From NCBI GenBank assembly GCA_028286905.1, contig JAQBQP010000002.1:309458-373457 (forward strand): 64,000 bases of DNA, given 5' to 3'. Both the position numbers and the translations under genes were made by a program. The DNA comes from Candidatus Doudnabacteria bacterium. Its GTDB lineage: Bacteria; Patescibacteriota; Doudnabacteria; UBA920; VMFF01. This document shows positions 23,250-40,500 of the stretch, piece after piece (positions within the stretch are counted from its first letter, which is position 1; each line of letters begins with the position of its first letter). The notes beneath the pieces were generated by a model. The model worked only from the letters and a program-made list of their open reading frames with translations, did no database searches and was not told the origin of the DNA.

Positions 23250-23534
23250 CTACAAAACCGCAGTATTACGAATACTTGACTTTTCGTCAAATTTGTAAGC
23301 TTTTGCTAAAATCAGTTTATCTTTACGTTTCAAGTTTTTAATTCTAAATTCTTCTCTAAGCGCAGATGATTTATTCTTCTGCGTTTTTATATAAACAAAT
23401 TTATTTGCCCCGTGGGTTTTTGTATACTTGGCACCTTTTCCTTGTTTATGAGCCAAAAGACGTTTGGCTATATTATTTGTAATTCCGCAATACAGAGTTT
23501 TATCGTTACATTCGAGGATGTATGTATACCACAT
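23250..23534 (-). CDS. GIY-YIG nuclease family protein (UPF0213)
   Basis: 94 aa; WYTYILECNDKTLYCGITNN...RL..H GIY-YIG core. Confidence 0.8.
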   Translation of the reverse strand: MWYTYILECNDKTLYCGITNNIAKRLLAHKQGKGAKYTKTHGANKFVYIKTQKNKSSALREEFRIKNLKRKDKLILAKAYKFDEKSSIRNTAVL

Positions 23535-23586: not shown

Positions 23587-23630
23587 GTTACACGTGATGA
23601 AAAATGTATCACGTGGATGTGTCACGTGAT
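23587..23630. promoter_or_regulatory. cluster of three CACGTG palindromes (two as TCACGTG) in the upstream region of the GIY-YIG gene
   Basis: ttaCACGTGatg...atCACGTGgat...gtCACGTGata within 40 bp. Confidence 0.4.
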
Positions 23631-24497: not shown

Positions 24498-24842
24498 TTA
24501 GAAAGGGATATCCTCTATTCGTATTTCGTCTTCAACAAGATCTGCTTCAGGAACTTTAACAGAGTACTTGCTTATCGCAGCCTGGTATAAACTCTCTGCT
24601 TGTTTCTTAAATTGTTCCTTATCGCTTATGAAATTATTTAATTTGTTGTACAAGTTCAGGTATATTATTTGATGTGCTTTATTGCTAAGAGATCGCTCGT
24701 CATATGGGTCCATTTCAAAATCTTCGTTAGAAGCTAAATTTAGCAAGGATGATAAATCCTCTCTAGTTATCCTGTCTATTTCAACGTAATTCTCCCCCGT
24801 TTTGTAGTAAGCTTTTCCGTTATTTATATGTAAATACTTCAT
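24498..24842 (-). CDS. hypothetical 114-aa protein, operon partner of the PHP-ATPase gene
   Basis: Start ATG 3 nt after the stop of the upstream gene (TAAATCATG); acidic, no recognisable motif. Confidence 0.5.
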   Translation of the reverse strand: MKYLHINNGKAYYKTGENYVEIDRITREDLSSLLNLASNEDFEMDPYDERSLSNKAHQIIYLNLYNKLNNFISDKEQFKKQAESLYQAAISKYSVKVPEADLVEDEIRIEDIPF

Positions 24843-24845
24843 GAT

Positions 24846-26894
24846 TTATTTTTTAAAATTATTGTACAGCTCATTTCGTAACGCGTATGCTTCCACTCCT
24901 GCTTCAAGGGTAGCGAGGAGGATTTCGTAACTATCTACCTTCTCCATCCCATCAGCAGTTTTGAATTCCTTATCCCCCGGCGATCCTGAAAATATTTTAT
25001 ACGTGTCCTTGTCTTGGAAAATTGTTCGCTTTGTATACAGAACATAATCAGGACGCATTAACATACCTACGGTATTGTTATGTGTAACTACAATTACGGG
25101 AAGCTCCTTAGAAATATCTTTGATCTCTTTGTTAACATTTTCTTTTAAAAAAATGTTGTCAAAAGAAGATTCGGGTTCATCTATCAAAAGCATCTCGTAC
25201 TGTCGGGCATCCGCCAACGACTTAAGTAAATTGAATTCTGATCTTTCGCCACCTGATACCTCCTTATCATATTGATTTAGAACCTTGTATGTCACCTTAC
25301 AAAAATATCTATATAATTCGCTTTTTTCTAACCGGTCGATATTTTTCAACTCCTCTAAAAATTGAATTGGTATATCATATTTGGAATATGCACTACTAAA
25401 TTTAACATTTTTATGACTTTCGTCAGAAAGTTCCCCCGCACCGTTGAACTTACGAGCTATTGATCTAATCTTAAACTTTCTAAAAGAGGTGTTTTCATCA
25501 ATAATAGTTTCCTTCATTACTGCGAGAGCGATCGCGTTAAATTTTTTAAATTTTTCTCGTTCTAATTTCAAATCGTAAAAGTCTATCTCATTATGTTCAA
25601 TAATTGGACTTGAGGTTCGATTTTTTAAATTTTTCTGTGTTTCGCTAATCAAATCATTTACCCAAACCTTCTTCATTCTTTCTTCTGTATCCTGGATAAA
25701 GCGCTCTTTTAAATCGTCTAAAAGAGCGGCTAGACTTTTTGGCTGTATATGTCTATTGATTATCTCCTCATAGACTTGGTCTTTCAGTAAAATTATTACT
25801 GCTGCAATTATATCCTTTAGATCTTCAGTCGAGCGGATCGGATATAGATTTTCAGTAAATAAGGCAGTGTTTGAGAATTCATCGTGTTGCTTTTGATTCA
25901 AAGCAAACTCCAATAAGGACTCAATATACCTATTTAAAATATAATTCGTCTCTCTTCTATCTATTGTTACTACGTCATTAACTACTAACTTAAACTCATC
26001 CAAATATCTTTCTCGCGTATTACTTTTTGCATTCTCAAGATTTTTTTGAAATTTTTCCTTATCGTCACTAATTAACTCAAACTGTTCTATATATTTGATA
26101 GATTTTTCGTCGATATCGTAAACCTTTTTAAGATTGTTTAATAAGTTGGTTTTACCTGAAGATCTTTCGCCTAAAACTATATTGAGCCCATTCGATAAAA
26201 TCTGTCCATCATTAAAAACCTGAAAAAAATCTTGGCTTCCTATATTAGACAAGAAAACTTTGGATTTATCCTGGAGTGCGATCTTTATAACATTCAGAGA
26301 AAGTTTTTCTGAGTTTGTTTTAATAAAGGTCTGCCTGCCCTGAAGCTCGGCGAGATTTAAGTCATGGCTTACTCGACAATCACTAAATAAAACAGGTGTT
26401 AATGGGAGGTCTTCCTTCATCAATCTGTTAAATTTTTTAGGACTGCTTACCTCACCGGTAAAAATACAGTCATTTAGTAACTCGAAGGCATGCTGGTTTA
26501 CTCTTGGTTTTTTATCGTAATGGGGAACGAGTAGATAGTCACTTAGATTTACAAATATTTCCCTTAGCTTATTTGCTTTAACAGTGTCATTATTTTGCAA
26601 TTCCGCAGTGATTAAATCACATTTTTGACTAAAATCCTCTAGGTTTATGTTTTCTGAGACAAGTAATAAATGTCCGTTTTCAAAATCAATTTCTATCCCA
26701 GGAAGAATTACCGCGTTTGGCAAATCTCCAGTTATTTGTTGGAATTGTGCTTTGTTAAATAAATTGTGGTTAGTGATGGCCACAGCATCTAATGAGAAGG
26801 AAGTAAGGTATTCTTTAAACTTATCAAGTTCAAACTCAAAATAAGCGTCTTTTTTGGTGGGTACTGTATGCACATGTAAATCGATTTTTTTCAT
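24846..26894 (-). CDS. PHP-domain phosphoesterase fused to an ABC/SMC-like ATPase (Ppl-like candidate defence protein)
   Basis: 682 aa; N-terminal IDLHVHT...AITNHN...PGIEI PHP motifs. Walker A LGERSSGKTNLL, ABC signature VSGGERSEFNLL, Walker B/D-loop MLLIDEPESSFD, H-loop VIVVTHN. About 340 aa lie between Walker A and the signature, as in SMC/RecF/OLD-type ATPases. Confidence 0.7.
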   Translation of the reverse strand: MKKIDLHVHTVPTKKDAYFEFELDKFKEYLTSFSLDAVAITNHNLFNKAQFQQITGDLPNAVILPGIEIDFENGHLLLVSENINLEDFSQKCDLITAELQNNDTVKANKLREIFVNLSDYLLVPHYDKKPRVNQHAFELLNDCIFTGEVSSPKKFNRLMKEDLPLTPVLFSDCRVSHDLNLAELQGRQTFIKTNSEKLSLNVIKIALQDKSKVFLSNIGSQDFFQVFNDGQILSNGLNIVLGERSSGKTNLLNNLKKVYDIDEKSIKYIEQFELISDDKEKFQKNLENAKSNTRERYLDEFKLVVNDVVTIDRRETNYILNRYIESLLEFALNQKQHDEFSNTALFTENLYPIRSTEDLKDIIAAVIILLKDQVYEEIINRHIQPKSLAALLDDLKERFIQDTEERMKKVWVNDLISETQKNLKNRTSSPIIEHNEIDFYDLKLEREKFKKFNAIALAVMKETIIDENTSFRKFKIRSIARKFNGAGELSDESHKNVKFSSAYSKYDIPIQFLEELKNIDRLEKSELYRYFCKVTYKVLNQYDKEVSGGERSEFNLLKSLADARQYEMLLIDEPESSFDNIFLKENVNKEIKDISKELPVIVVTHNNTVGMLMRPDYVLYTKRTIFQDKDTYKIFSGSPGDKEFKTADGMEKVDSYEILLATLEAGVEAYALRNELYNNFKK

Positions 26895-26995
26895 ATGGAG
26901 TTACGGCAAACAAAAATTACTAAACTTATTATGCTCTTTGACCATCTAATTTGCAACGATTTATTAAATTTTGATTAAATTCAAGTTTTTCCTAA

Positions 26996-27064
26996 CTCTC
27001 CCCTGTTTTAACTTACCCACAAGAAAATTGCCGTGATCGCTTGCGCTACAGTGTGCGAAACAAA
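26996..27064. repeat. about 68-nt imperfect direct repeat, copy A (upstream of the PHP-ATPase promoter)
   Basis: ctctcccctgtttt...gatcgcttgcgctacagtgtgcgaaacaaaagag is about 78% identical to copy B at 27389-27456. Confidence 0.6.
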
Positions 27065-27095
27065 AGAGTACAATATCTGAATATCGTACTCTTAC
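27065..27095 (-). terminator. Rho-independent terminator after the 65-aa ORF
   Basis: AGAGTAC-N14-GTACTCT hairpin followed by TTTTGTTT on the minus strand. Confidence 0.6.
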
Positions 27096-27118
27096 TGTTT
27101 ACAGGCGTATTCCCTAAA

Positions 27119-27316
27119 TCAAGGGTGTCTCCTCCTTCTGCTAGGTCCAATAGGCTCTTGGCTATGAGGCGCATGTCTAGACAACTCGACCCCTCTGCGG
27201 ATTGGGGCATATTCCTTGCGCGCCTGCTGCTCCGCTCGCCGTATCTCTTCTTGACCTTCGGGGGTATTGGGATCAGGAAATGGATACGCTTCCAAAATTT
27301 CCAAGTCGCTCGGCAT
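27119..27316 (-). CDS. small GC-rich ORF (65 aa), acidic N-terminus and basic C-terminus
   Basis: AAGGA SD 5-6 nt before the ATG; the stop is followed by hairpin AGAGTAC...GTACTCT plus a U-run on the minus strand. Local GC far above the host GC. Confidence 0.45.
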   Translation of the reverse strand: MPSDLEILEAYPFPDPNTPEGQEEIRRAEQQARKEYAPIRRGVELSRHAPHSQEPIGPSRRRRHP

Positions 27317-27388
27317 AAATTCCTTTGGTTGAGATAAATCAAGTATATTCCGAAATTTTTATAATGTCTAAAAAAGTTTTTTCTATTC

Positions 27389-27456
27389 TCTCCCCTGTTT
27401 TTAGTTGTTCACGAAAATGCCAGATCCCTTGCGCTACATTATGCAAAAAACAAAGG
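27389..27456. repeat. about 68-nt imperfect direct repeat, copy B (upstream of the 65-aa ORF promoter)
   Basis: ctctcccctgttttt...gatcccttgcgctacattatgcaaaaaacaaaggag; each copy abuts a minus-strand terminator hairpin. Confidence 0.6.
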
Positions 27457-27490
27457 AGCCCTAACATTGCTGTTGGGCTCCTTGTTTAAT
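27455..27490 (-). terminator. Rho-independent terminator after the ParB-like gene
   Basis: GGAGCCC-N13-GGGCTCC hairpin followed by TTTGTTTTTTGC on the minus strand. Confidence 0.65.
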
Positions 27491-27513
27491 GTCGGAAAAA
27501 ATTCCTCCTGCAA

Positions 27514-28500
27514 CTACCTGTTCGCTGCGACTCGGCTTACAATGCTCAGCACTCCGGGCGGCGCCTTCACTGATTGTCCGTCGATTGCCTCGTGCAGCTG
27601 CTGCATTTGGCTCTGAGCTTTCGCGATACTACGCAACATCCGCTGCTTGTCCTTGTCGTCCCTGTGTTCAAACATCTTCTTGAACTGGGACATTGGCATG
27701 TCCATCACGATCTTGGTATCGAGCGTCAGCCGATTCAGGAAGCTCTCTACTCGGCGATAGTCATCGCTGGGACGCATCCTACGACCGTCGACCTTCGCGC
27801 CGCCTCGCAGGCTCTGTAGTTGCTGCCCGATGTAGAACCGCGCTTCCTTCAAGTTCATGTCGCTGCCGATGATGTATCGAGCCATCTGCAACTGCCGGTC
27901 GAATGGAAACGGAACCAGCATCACTGCTGTATTGACTCCCAGCTGCTGGTCTTTCGGCAATTCCGGGTTTAGCAGTGCCTGAACTCGAGAGTCTAGCTTC
28001 AGCAAGCTGAGGTGCTTGCTGACCCAAGCGCTATCTCTAGCACATAGCGAGGCGAGCTCGCCTTGGGTACAGTTACCACGGTCTTGCTGCATCTTTTGCA
28101 GACCGAGCGCGACTTCCATGACAGTCATGTCTACTCTGCCGACATTTTCGAGGAACGCATGTTCGTGCTGCTTCTCTGGACTGCGACGCTCCGAGATAAT
28201 CGCCCGCAACTTGTAGTTGGGGTCGACTGCCCCGCTTGCGCGCCAGCGGCGTTCTCCGATGTTCAACCGGAAGCGCATACCCGGGTTTTTCGCGATCTCC
28301 TCTTCGGTCAGCACACAGACCTCTATCGGAGTATGCTGGCCCGTTGTTTTGATGCTGTCTTCCAATTCTTTCAACTCTATTGGATCGAAATACTTCCGAG
28401 GCTGAGTCGGATCTCGCAGAATCTCACTGCGGTCGATCTCCAGCACCATCCCAACGACTACATTTGAGTCTGAGTCCAATGTCCGCGACTTTCTCGGCAT
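27514..28500 (-). CDS. ParB/Spo0J-family protein (ParB N-terminal nuclease-like domain plus HTH), orphan with no parA partner, GC-rich
   Basis: 328 aa; NIGERRWRASG (ParB box II GERRWRA), ENVGR...(ParB ENLQR-like), HTH TQGELASLCARDSAWVSKHLSLLKLDSRVQALL collinear with the Spo0J HTH. AGGAGG SD 6 nt upstream. GC around 58%. Confidence 0.7.
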   Translation of the reverse strand: MPRKSRTLDSDSNVVVGMVLEIDRSEILRDPTQPRKYFDPIELKELEDSIKTTGQHTPIEVCVLTEEEIAKNPGMRFRLNIGERRWRASGAVDPNYKLRAIISERRSPEKQHEHAFLENVGRVDMTVMEVALGLQKMQQDRGNCTQGELASLCARDSAWVSKHLSLLKLDSRVQALLNPELPKDQQLGVNTAVMLVPFPFDRQLQMARYIIGSDMNLKEARFYIGQQLQSLRGGAKVDGRRMRPSDDYRRVESFLNRLTLDTKIVMDMPMSQFKKMFEHRDDKDKQRMLRSIAKAQSQMQQLHEAIDGQSVKAPPGVLSIVSRVAANR

Positions 28501-28572
28501 GCTATCCTCCTGGGACGGTAGCGTTATAAAACTAAGTAAATTATGCGCCTTATTTTAGGTAAAACAAATCTG

Positions 28573-28893
28573 CTACTGCTCAAGCCGATCTGAGACAAGT
28601 CGTGCGATCGCATTCGCTATTTTGTTCAAATGAGTTACTATTAAAAAATTTGGAATGTGTAATGTTGAAGACCCTGCTTGATCAGAATAATGCTCTCTTT
28701 TAAAATCTACTAAGATTTGCGTCGGGTTTAAATAATGCTGCAGCCCATCGACTTCTATGTTGAGTTTGATCTCTGGTATATAGATATCGACATGTTTATA
28801 ACCGTCCCAATGTTCAGTGAGTAAATTTATATTTCTTTTCCTTAGCGCAATAGCGAGACGTAAGGCTTGTTTAGTTCGGAAAATTTTTGGCAT
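28573..28893 (-). CDS. DUF559-like (Vsr/restriction-endonuclease-fold) small endonuclease-domain protein
   Basis: 106 aa; IEVDGLQH...D..R pattern of DUF559 endonuclease-domain proteins. Confidence 0.4.
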   Translation of the reverse strand: MPKIFRTKQALRLAIALRKRNINLLTEHWDGYKHVDIYIPEIKLNIEVDGLQHYLNPTQILVDFKREHYSDQAGSSTLHIPNFLIVTHLNKIANAIARLVSDRLEQ

Positions 28894-31208: not shown

Positions 31209-31445
31209 CTAGTCCTCCCAGCTAATTCCGCTGGAGAGGCAGAGGCGGTGGGTTTCCACTTGCTCTGCCGTCATCTCCAAACGAAGCGGGAGCAAAGGTC
31301 GTGGCTGAACCTTAGGGGCGTAGAGCGAGCAGGATGTGTTACTGCACGGCTCGGAAATCAGCCGGGTCTGACCACATCTACTGCACAAGGCGCTCCTGAT
31401 GATGTGGTCATCGAAGGCCGCGATGCCCGTCAGGACCGCTTTCAT
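31209..31445 (-). CDS. GC-rich small Cys-containing protein (78 aa), translationally coupled to the upstream gene
   Basis: Start ATG overlaps the stop of the preceding gene (GAATGAAAGCG: ATGA overlap); followed by a terminator. Confidence 0.4.
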   Translation of the reverse strand: MKAVLTGIAAFDDHIIRSALCSRCGQTRLISEPCSNTSCSLYAPKVQPRPLLPLRLEMTAEQVETHRLCLSSGISWED

Positions 31446-31633
31446 TCGAACGGCAGCGGTGAGGCGCAGTGAGCACACTTCGCGCCATCGGGGGTCTGTT
31501 GACGACAGTTGCCGCACTGGATCTCCGGCCGCTGCGAAGCCGTCCGACTCACCGGCTCGGACGCTGGCCGTCCATTCGGAATCCGACTCGTCGAACGCAC
31601 GATCCTGGGTCCTTCATGCGAGGTTTCGGTCAT
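31442..31633 (-). CDS. GC-rich small zinc-ribbon protein (63 aa, C-terminal CGNC...CAHC)
   Basis: SD AGAGAGGG 5 nt before the ATG (MTETSHEG...); two CxxC pairs at the C-terminus. Confidence 0.45.
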   Translation of the reverse strand: MTETSHEGPRIVRSTSRIPNGRPASEPVSRTASQRPEIQCGNCRQQTPDGAKCAHCASPLPFE

Positions 31634-31741
31634 AGTGCCCTCTCTGGCCTGGTTGTTGTGAACTATTGATATCCCCCTGTGACTTGCACTTTCGTTTACT
31701 TTCTTGATTGTGCAATAAATCACGGAATAGTTCAAGCCCCT

Positions 31742-40414: not shown

Positions 40415-40457
40415 CCTACAACCTACAGGAGGTTGTATAACTCCATAGAAAACAGAA

Positions 40458-40500
40458 AAGAGCCCCAACGATAAAACGTTCGGGCTCTTTCTATTTTATA
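40458..40500. terminator. bidirectional intrinsic terminator between the GC-rich cassette and pyrG
   Basis: AAGAGCCC-N16-GGGCTCTT flanked by an A-run and a T-run. Confidence 0.65.

Follow-up and report, generated by a model that had tools for sequence, protein, structure and literature searches.

A recently acquired GC-rich gene in a Candidatus Doudnabacteria chromosome encodes an orphan ParB-like protein, probably a stand-alone DNA-binding regulator

Introduction

What does a ParB-like protein do in a genome where its gene stands alone, with no gene for ParA beside it? The question is raised by a 64-kb chromosomal stretch (the window), part of a 540-kb contig from the metagenome-assembled genome of a Candidatus Doudnabacteria bacterium (Patescibacteria, or candidate phyla radiation), with an overall content of guanine plus cytosine (GC) of 39%. 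In 400-bp windows the GC content climbs to 50–55% between about 27.04 and 28.53 kb, and the main occupant of this GC-rich islet is a gene for a 328-residue ParB-like protein. An earlier note on the same DNA had described the islet as a module containing an orphan ParB/Spo0J-like protein and a small second protein, and had suggested that the ParB-like protein belongs to a multi-gene system or is the relic of an integrated plasmid-like element. The observation is partly confirmed by the present analysis, and its interpretation is partly supported. Our conclusion is that the gene encodes an orphan ParB, that it came from a mobile element and entered this genome recently, and that its product probably acts as a stand-alone DNA-binding regulator, independent of ParA and not part of the adjoining candidate defence system PDC-M49. 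The features that make up the gene are as follows.

28500..27514, minus strand: orphan ParB-like gene, 328 residues (MDB4940160.1, NCBI name 'ParB-like partition protein'; identified as an open reading frame (ORF) and by Pfam, NCBIfam and AlphaFold2)
28506..28511, minus strand: Shine-Dalgarno sequence AGGAGG, 5 nt upstream of the ParB start codon
27443..27483, minus strand: intrinsic terminator of the ParB-like gene, with hairpin GGAGCCCAACAGCAATGTTAGGGCTCC at approximately 27457–27479 and a T-run

Domain structure and predicted fold

Two Pfam domains were identified above their gathering scores, namely ParB_N (PF02195) at residues 20–120 (40.4 bits against 26.3, E value 3e-10) and HTH_ParB (PF17762) at residues 124–224 (35.8 bits against 22.6, E value 9e-9). 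Among the NCBIfam models only the generic TIGR00180 passed (79.9 bits against 58.45), and the PRTRC-ParB model was far under its cut-off. ParB_C (PF23552), which is present in the canonical relative P0002, gave no match at E values up to 0.01. The nearest solved structures by sequence are H. pylori ParB/Spo0J (4umk), M. xanthus ParB, Noc and KorB. With chromosomal ParB/Spo0J the protein shares the N-terminal domain and the helix-turn-helix (HTH), which are 25–28% identical to those of solved ParBs.

The earlier note had read a GERRWRA box, an ENLQR-like box and a Spo0J-like HTH in the protein, and all of these are present. Box I QPR (as QPRKYF) and Box II (GERRWRAS) are both intact. Box III has the form ENVGR, in which the Glu, the invariant Asn119 and the Arg are kept and Gly replaces Gln. 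The residues P34, R35, G82, R85 and N119 are invariant across 102 family members, and the protein retains all of them. The canonical GxxQP motif appears as GQxxP, both here and in the family.

The AlphaFold2 model, calculated from the 102-sequence alignment, has a pLDDT (predicted local distance difference test) of 91.3 and a pTM (predicted template modelling score) of 0.83. Foldseek matches its first ~220 residues to ParB, Noc and KorB at about 1e-13. Residues ~244–310 are predicted to fold as two long helices with a short one between them, making a helical hairpin tail; when modelled alone (pLDDT 83), this tail had no significant match in the PDB by profile or by Foldseek. The C-terminal half had been described as non-canonical, which is true of the tail; however, only the last ~90 residues (about 232–328, the last third) depart from canonical ParB, and these are conserved in a subfamily, as described below. 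The predicted architecture is that of the ParB, Noc and KorB clamps and does not indicate nuclease activity, which had been listed among the possible functions.

Absence of ParA and of partition sites

The name in the NCBI record implies a true partition (centromere-binding) protein. Such a protein could work for the chromosome, if a ParA is encoded far away, or for a plasmid-like element that is integrated or co-resident. Chromosomal ParB/Spo0J and Noc are the best matches in sequence and structure, which is consistent with this reading, as is the pass of the 'partition protein' domain model TIGR00180. The genomic evidence points the other way. The 64-kb window has no ParA homologue, no deviant Walker A motif and no second ParB, in agreement with the orphan status first proposed for the protein, and no ParA occurs within 8 kb at any of the related loci in the candidate phyla radiation (CPR). 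The ParA-binding motif LG[RK]GL occurs in 0 of 102 aligned family members, the window protein included. The ParB_C domain is missing, as noted above, and the canonical parS sequence (TGTTNCACGTGAAACA) has no match in the window with up to 3 mismatches. Furthermore, the gene is of foreign composition and lies beside a terminus-like switch in GC skew, not near an origin. These are all differences from the ParB of a ParABS system, and we consider a partition role improbable.

A search for parS-like palindromes, which the earlier note had suggested, was likewise negative. Two GC-rich palindromes lie inside the ParB gene, AGGCGAGCTCGCCT at 28050–28063 and a 16/18 palindrome at 28232–28249. They were considered as binding sites and are treated as chance occurrences because the density of palindromes is not raised in the vicinity of family genes (0.45 per kb, compared with 0.39).

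Two further observations were made at the other side of PDC-M49. All three CACGTGAT octamers in the window fall within 40 bp (23591–23630, spaced 17 and 15 bp), approximately 60–100 nt upstream of a GIY-YIG nuclease gene (23250–23534, minus strand; Pfam 5e-17). Judged by its sequence the cluster looks like an operator, and it shares its CACGTG core with parS; nothing ties it to the ParB-like protein, whose closest relatives have no such cluster. At ~23.2–24.5 kb the gene orientation turns from mostly plus to mostly minus and the cumulative GC skew peaks. This switch suggests a replication terminus, adjoining the variable region that contains PDC-M49 and the ParB islet; a search there for a dif-like site gave chance-level matches only.

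Foreign origin of the gene

The ParB ORF has a GC content of 55.1%, compared with 54.5% for a neighbouring ORF of 65 residues and 51% for the interval 27041–28560 as a whole. The islet is not uniform in composition: it consists of two GC-rich pieces with an AT-rich spacer of ~130 nt between them. A fine GC profile places the start of the foreign GC-rich DNA ~20 nt upstream of the ParB ATG. The jump in GC content reported earlier is therefore real, and is found at synonymous sites, but the reported value of 58% is too high, the best 400-bp window reaching 55%.

The gene was compared with host genes from the window, using 20 genes for the range of GC content at third codon positions (GC3) and 46 gene starts for Shine-Dalgarno sequences. 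Its GC3 is 0.68, compared with 0.34 for the pooled host genes and a range of 0.29–0.48 across them. Its codon choice is opposite to that of the host, with CTG preferred over TTA, AAG over AAA and GTC over GTT. The codon-usage comparison proposed in the earlier note thus separates the gene from its host, and the remark that its perfect AGGAGG is unlike host genes also holds: AGGAG is found upstream of 0 of 46 host genes, and any 4-mer Shine-Dalgarno core upstream of 8 of 46. Several other genes in GC-rich islets carry Shine-Dalgarno-like sequences, unlike host genes.

Three more gene-sized GC-rich islets occur in the window, at 30.4–31.75, 39.5–40.45 and 54.65–56.2 kb, with 52–57% GC and GC3 of 0.60–0.71. 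They lie between housekeeping genes (L27, cytidine triphosphate (CTP) synthase, gyrB). Their ORFs are orphans of 191, 200, 80, 307 and 145 residues, with no match in Pfam, NCBIfam or PHROG.

An abrupt change in composition over about 1.5 kb could also arise if a GC-rich contaminant fragment had been wrongly assembled into a contig of Doudnabacteria. In keeping with this, the protein cluster has a single member on a single contig, and no independent contig covering the ParB islet was found, nor is an independent copy of it on record. Such an artefact would however require two chimeric junctions leading back into one host locus, and both junctions are intergenic with coherent signals (a Shine-Dalgarno sequence and terminators). 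Two of the other islets, those at 30.4 and 54.7 kb, are also present in an independent JGI metagenome (loci L129 and L130), with identical AT-rich junctions and at 94–96% identity, which makes chimerism unlikely as a general explanation. In addition, the pattern of a GC-rich ParB islet recurs in many independent CPR assemblies. Contamination or chimerism at the ParB islet is unlikely on these grounds, and we give a mis-joined contig almost no credence.

The recurrence in other CPR genomes was quantified: the ParB-like gene exceeds its local background in GC3 by more than 0.10 in 15 of 28 CPR loci, and by more than 0.20 in 6. In GC-rich non-CPR genomes the excess has a median of +0.07 and is never above 0.20. 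Full-length or near-full-length relatives were found on ~19 viral contigs in IMG/VR, where the gene has the same GC content as its contig and where the neighbours include terminase, portal, Mu F, Mor or lysozyme genes. The locus of one relative also has genes for a type IV secretion system coupling protein, a helicase and methylases. In collections of isolate phages and plasmids the similarity was merely of a generic kind, to the N-terminal domain and the HTH; one record (H20) has 89% coverage at 24% identity, and there is no clear family member. The family is thus carried by phages and other mobile elements, and the proposal that the gene derives from an integrated element fits these results.

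A subfamily with a conserved tail

An exhaustive HMMER scan of 1.84 billion representative sequences gave 13,760 matches, of which 44 were below 1e-30. The best match other than the protein itself is 48% identical. The 44 strong matches span residues ~15–307 of the window protein and therefore include the tail, which is thus a conserved trait of a distinct subfamily of ~300 residues. The consensus of the subfamily is RxPxDDYRxLxxFxxR...MFxxRxxxDR in the tail and ANFGR in Box III. Longer members have varied N-terminal additions, for example three HTH_31 domains or a SNF2 helicase.

By manual count, with one genome per species, Patescibacteria hold about 25 of 32 full-length or near-full-length matches, in lineages that include Harrison-, Jorgensen-, Nealson-, Nomura-, Sacchari-, Pacei- and Doudnabacteria. 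The few matches from elsewhere are in Lysobacterales, Bdellovibrionales and Oligoflexia. A neighbour-joining tree is star-like, with CPR and viral copies interleaved.

A gene of the sigma-70 family, of extracytoplasmic function (ECF) type or group-3 type, directly adjoins the ParB-like gene in 11 of 38 subfamily loci and lies within three genes of it in 13 of 38. In the closest clade after P0003 (loci L124–L128) a translationally coupled gene immediately upstream encodes instead a protein of ~270 residues (~265–297), which has no Pfam match and is unrelated to sigma factors. In L124–L126 this gene overlaps the ParB start by 4 bp. The ~270-residue protein is a possible partner of the ParB-like proteins of this clade.

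Comparison with known ParB-fold proteins

In the passages searched of a recent survey (PMC12704722, PNAS 2025), orphan ParB proteins are described as common, lacking the ParA-binding motif and linked to mobile elements. As far as those passages define the class, the window protein belongs to it, having similarity to ParB with a nucleoside triphosphate (NTP)-binding fold, a position outside any parAB operon, and no ParA-binding motif. It shares with the orphan ParBs described there the NTP-binding fold and HTH, the absence of parA and of LG(R/K)GL, a divergent Box III and the link to phages and mobile elements. The words 'Patescibacteria' and 'CPR' are absent from the text of the survey, and the helical tail, the CPR enrichment, the adjacency to sigma factors and the recurrent GC-rich islets are not mentioned in the passages searched. 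The comparative evidence for these four features is itself modest.

Among individual proteins, the model superposes on KorB, in the KorB–KorA complex 8qa9, with a template modelling score (TM) of 0.73 when normalised to the target. KorB of plasmid RK2 is a CTP-dependent sliding clamp and a long-range transcriptional repressor. The two proteins share the N-terminal fold and HTH; they differ in the C-terminal domain, and the window protein scores 17.4 against 22.3 for Pfam KorB (PF08535). No KorA-like partner, IncC/ParA or OB-like operator was found for the window protein. By analogy, a KorB-like regulatory role, rather than a role in partition, is plausible.

Noc is the nucleoid occlusion protein of Firmicutes; it arose by duplication of a resident parB and is native to its hosts. 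Like the window protein it is a ParA-independent ParB paralogue, it provides the best structural superposition (7nfu, TM 0.66–0.68), and it is the second-best NCBIfam match. The window protein differs in reaching only 76.7 bits against the cut-off of 315 (TIGR04285), in being encoded by a foreign gene, and in having an N-terminus that is not obviously a membrane-targeting helix. VirB of Shigella, which PMC12704722 also cites, is a CTP-dependent anti-silencer derived from a plasmid ParB. It can be likened to the window protein by description only, as a DNA-binding regulator with a ParB fold that stands alone and is encoded on DNA acquired horizontally; we know of no H-NS-like silencing system in CPR bacteria.

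RepB of repABC was also considered. The RepB model (TIGR03454) gave 29.3 bits against 201.5, and there is no repA or repC. In repABC plasmids an antisense, counter-transcribed RNA (ctRNA) accompanies repB, itself a ParB homologue. The hairpin of the ParB terminator has a match to the Rfam family of this RNA, ctRNA_p42d (RF00489), of 25.2 bits, compared with a gathering score of 50, on the same strand as the gene. Being sub-threshold and on the wrong strand for a repABC ctRNA, this reading of the terminator was rejected, and the match is probably to a merely terminator-shaped sequence.

Proposed function

We propose that a single intact gene, with its own Shine-Dalgarno sequence and terminator, entered an intergenic gap in a variable region of the Doudnabacteria chromosome. 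The HTH of the encoded protein would recognise a specific DNA site, and the N-terminal ParB domain would close into a clamp on binding a nucleotide. This nucleotide would probably be CTP because Box I QPR, Box II GERRWRA and the Asn and Arg of Box III are intact. The conserved C-terminal helical hairpin may hold the dimer together. If expressed in its host, the protein would then function as a stand-alone DNA-bound regulator comparable to KorB, VirB or Noc, not as a centromere-binding partition protein. Roughly one in three related loci has a sigma-factor neighbour, which suggests a function in transcription and fits the ParB fold–Sigma70 fusions that are reported in the passages searched of PMC12704722.

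Several results weigh against this proposal. According to the same passages, orphan ParB folds may bind adenosine triphosphate (ATP) or guanosine triphosphate (GTP), and their nucleotide specificity is not predictable from sequence; the nucleotide, and any hydrolysis, therefore cannot be predicted here either. The residue displaced in GQxxP is the catalytic Gln of canonical ParB, and the Glu of Box III, though kept in the window protein, is replaced in most family members. No binding site was found: the window lacks a canonical parS, and palindromes show no enrichment close to family genes. The gene has no flanking integrase, transposase or other mobile-element gene that would account for its insertion. 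Finally, neither a sigma factor nor the ~270-residue partner was found in the window, even as a remnant (tblastn, E values up to 1), and a larger module may once have included the gene, now stranded as a fragment of it.

This last point leads to a different reading, in which the gene is a non-functional relic, a piece of stranded phage or plasmid DNA that lies idle and decaying in the host. Besides lacking its usual partners, the gene adjoins a 225-bp GC-rich fragment of doubtful coding signal, its codon usage suits the host poorly, and the same window contains three more GC-rich islets whose ORFs are orphans, one of them apparently frameshifted. Against decay, the ORF has the full length seen in the family, no invariant or nearly invariant residue has been lost, and the Shine-Dalgarno sequence and terminator are intact. 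We note that the composition has not been ameliorated, which implies a recent arrival, so that an intact ORF is uninformative either way. We regard the relic as unlikely, though it is the most serious of the alternatives to a functional regulator.

A broader proposal can be made, more tentatively. The subfamily may be an undescribed, Patescibacteria-enriched group of ParA-independent ParBs, distinguished by its own tail hairpin, a shifted catalytic Gln and a Box III that is usually without Glu. Its members would be coupled to alternative sigma factors as transcription-linked NTP switches, and would have been imported repeatedly into CPR genomes, as gene-sized GC-rich islets, from phages or GC-richer donors. 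We consider this possible but doubtful as a whole.

The gene itself is fairly ordinary, being one more member of an already surveyed class of orphan ParBs. The annotation 'partition protein' in its record is probably misleading. The subfamily is of wider interest, because a group that is enriched in CPR, linked to sigma factors and recurrently GC-richer than its hosts offers a handle on gene flow into Patescibacteria, and because it bears on what ParB switches do when there is no ParA. Should the link to sigma factors be functional, the principle of the ParB switch would extend to sigma-factor control. On the broader proposal above, the four islets in 64 kb would point to unusually frequent capture of short foreign DNA by an ultra-small bacterium.

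Neighbouring genes and PDC-M49

In coding order on the minus strand, the DUF559-like gene is followed by the ParB-like gene, its terminator, an AT-rich spacer, the 65-residue ORF, a second terminator, a second AT-rich spacer, the PHP-ATPase gene and a gene for 114 residues. The ParB gene had been said to follow the PHP-ATPase operon; on the coding strand it is upstream of that operon. The description of a module with its own terminators is correct, in that two terminators consisting of a hairpin and T-run are present.

28893..28573, minus strand: gene for a DUF559/Vsr-like endonuclease fold, 106 residues, neighbour outside the feature; GC 0.37, host-like
27378..27453, minus strand: AT-rich direct repeat copy A, with blocks TGTAGCGCAAGGGATC and AAACAGGGGAGAG, between the ParB terminator and the 65-residue ORF
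27119..27316, minus strand: ORF of 65 residues, hypothetical protein MDB4940159.1, inside the second GC-rich piece of ~225 bp
27064..27093, minus strand: second intrinsic terminator, a 13-bp AT-rich stem and T-run after the 65-residue ORF; z = -2.8
26986..27065, minus strand: AT-rich direct repeat copy B, directly upstream of the PHP-ATPase promoter region
26894..24846, minus strand: PHP-ATPase gene, 682 residues, neighbour outside the feature; PDC-M49 A
24842..24498, minus strand: gene for 114 residues, neighbour outside the feature; PDC-M49 B

The PHP-ATPase and the 114-residue protein match the A and B components of the PADLOC candidate system PDC-M49 end to end (E values 2e-232 and 5e-31). 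The DUF559-like protein matches Pfam DUF559 below the cut-off (E value 0.003) and PADLOC mREase_II at 2e-5.

The adjacency of these genes to the ParB-like gene, on the same strand, had led to the suggestion that the ParB-like protein could be the DNA-recognition or CTP-switch component of a multi-gene system. In this reading it would serve a defence island as its sensor or for DNA recognition, together with PDC-M49, the DUF559-like endonuclease, or both. Some defence systems do include proteins with a ParB fold, DndB being an example. The searched passages of PMC12704722 can be cited in favour of the same point. A repeat of ~80 nt that follows the ParB terminator is also found before the PHP-ATPase promoter. 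However, PDC-M49 by definition consists of two genes, both of which are found here, so that it is already complete, and neither the ParB-like protein nor the 65-residue ORF has a PADLOC match. The PDC-M49 genes have a GC content of 0.34 and a GC3 of 0.32, compared with the GC3 of 0.68 of the ParB gene, which indicates a different compositional origin, and two terminators separate them from it. In 130 related ParB loci (1.68 Mb) there was no homologue of any of five neighbours (M49A, M49B, the DUF559-like protein and the proteins of 142 and 332 residues), and the repeat was not found in the related loci or metagenome contigs. A part for the ParB-like protein in such a system is very improbable. 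Their proximity is best understood as a shared position within a variable region, and the PDC-M49 pair is a separate candidate defence system that should not be merged with the ParB gene.

The repeat is AT-rich and direct, with the outline TGTAGCGCAAGSGATC ... AAACAGGGGAGAG. Its two copies are ~75% identical, and one follows each of the two terminators, copy A before the 65-residue ORF and copy B before the PHP-ATPase promoter. There are only two copies in the window, and the repeat has no match in Rfam. Metagenome contigs were searched for close relatives of the PHP-ATPase, which might have placed the repeat in that operon, and none was found. The repeats were also considered as attC sites of integron cassettes. 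This was rejected: neither strand folds in an attC-like manner, there are two copies only, and none was found elsewhere in the searches.

The 65-residue mini-protein of the earlier note exists as an ORF at 27316..27119, but its coding status is doubtful. It has no match in Pfam, NCBIfam or PHROG, and it is a singleton with no homologue in a database of 5.8 billion clusters. Its GC3 is 0.50 in its own frame, where the third position is the lowest in GC of the three codon positions, compared with 0.63 in the neighbouring frame; with 66 codons this weak coding signal is only suggestive. The possibility that it encodes a conserved small partner of ParB was rejected, there being no homologue and no counterpart downstream of 38 family members. 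From its sequence, the ORF appears to be a doubtful gene or a remnant of foreign DNA.

Minor features of the other islets

The islet at 30.4–31.75 kb contains two overlapping ORFs of 97 and 102 residues in different frames (31209–31735, minus strand). Both are rich in Cys, with CxxC pairs, and together they resemble a single gene of zinc-ribbon type split by a frameshift; neither matches Pfam. A search for a donor through homologues of the 307-residue protein of islet 4 found none. The terminators of islet 1 (the ParB islet, 27443–27483) and islet 3 (40455–40495) share the pattern GAGCCC(N)AAC...GTT(N)GGGCTC, which hints at a common donor or a common type of terminator.

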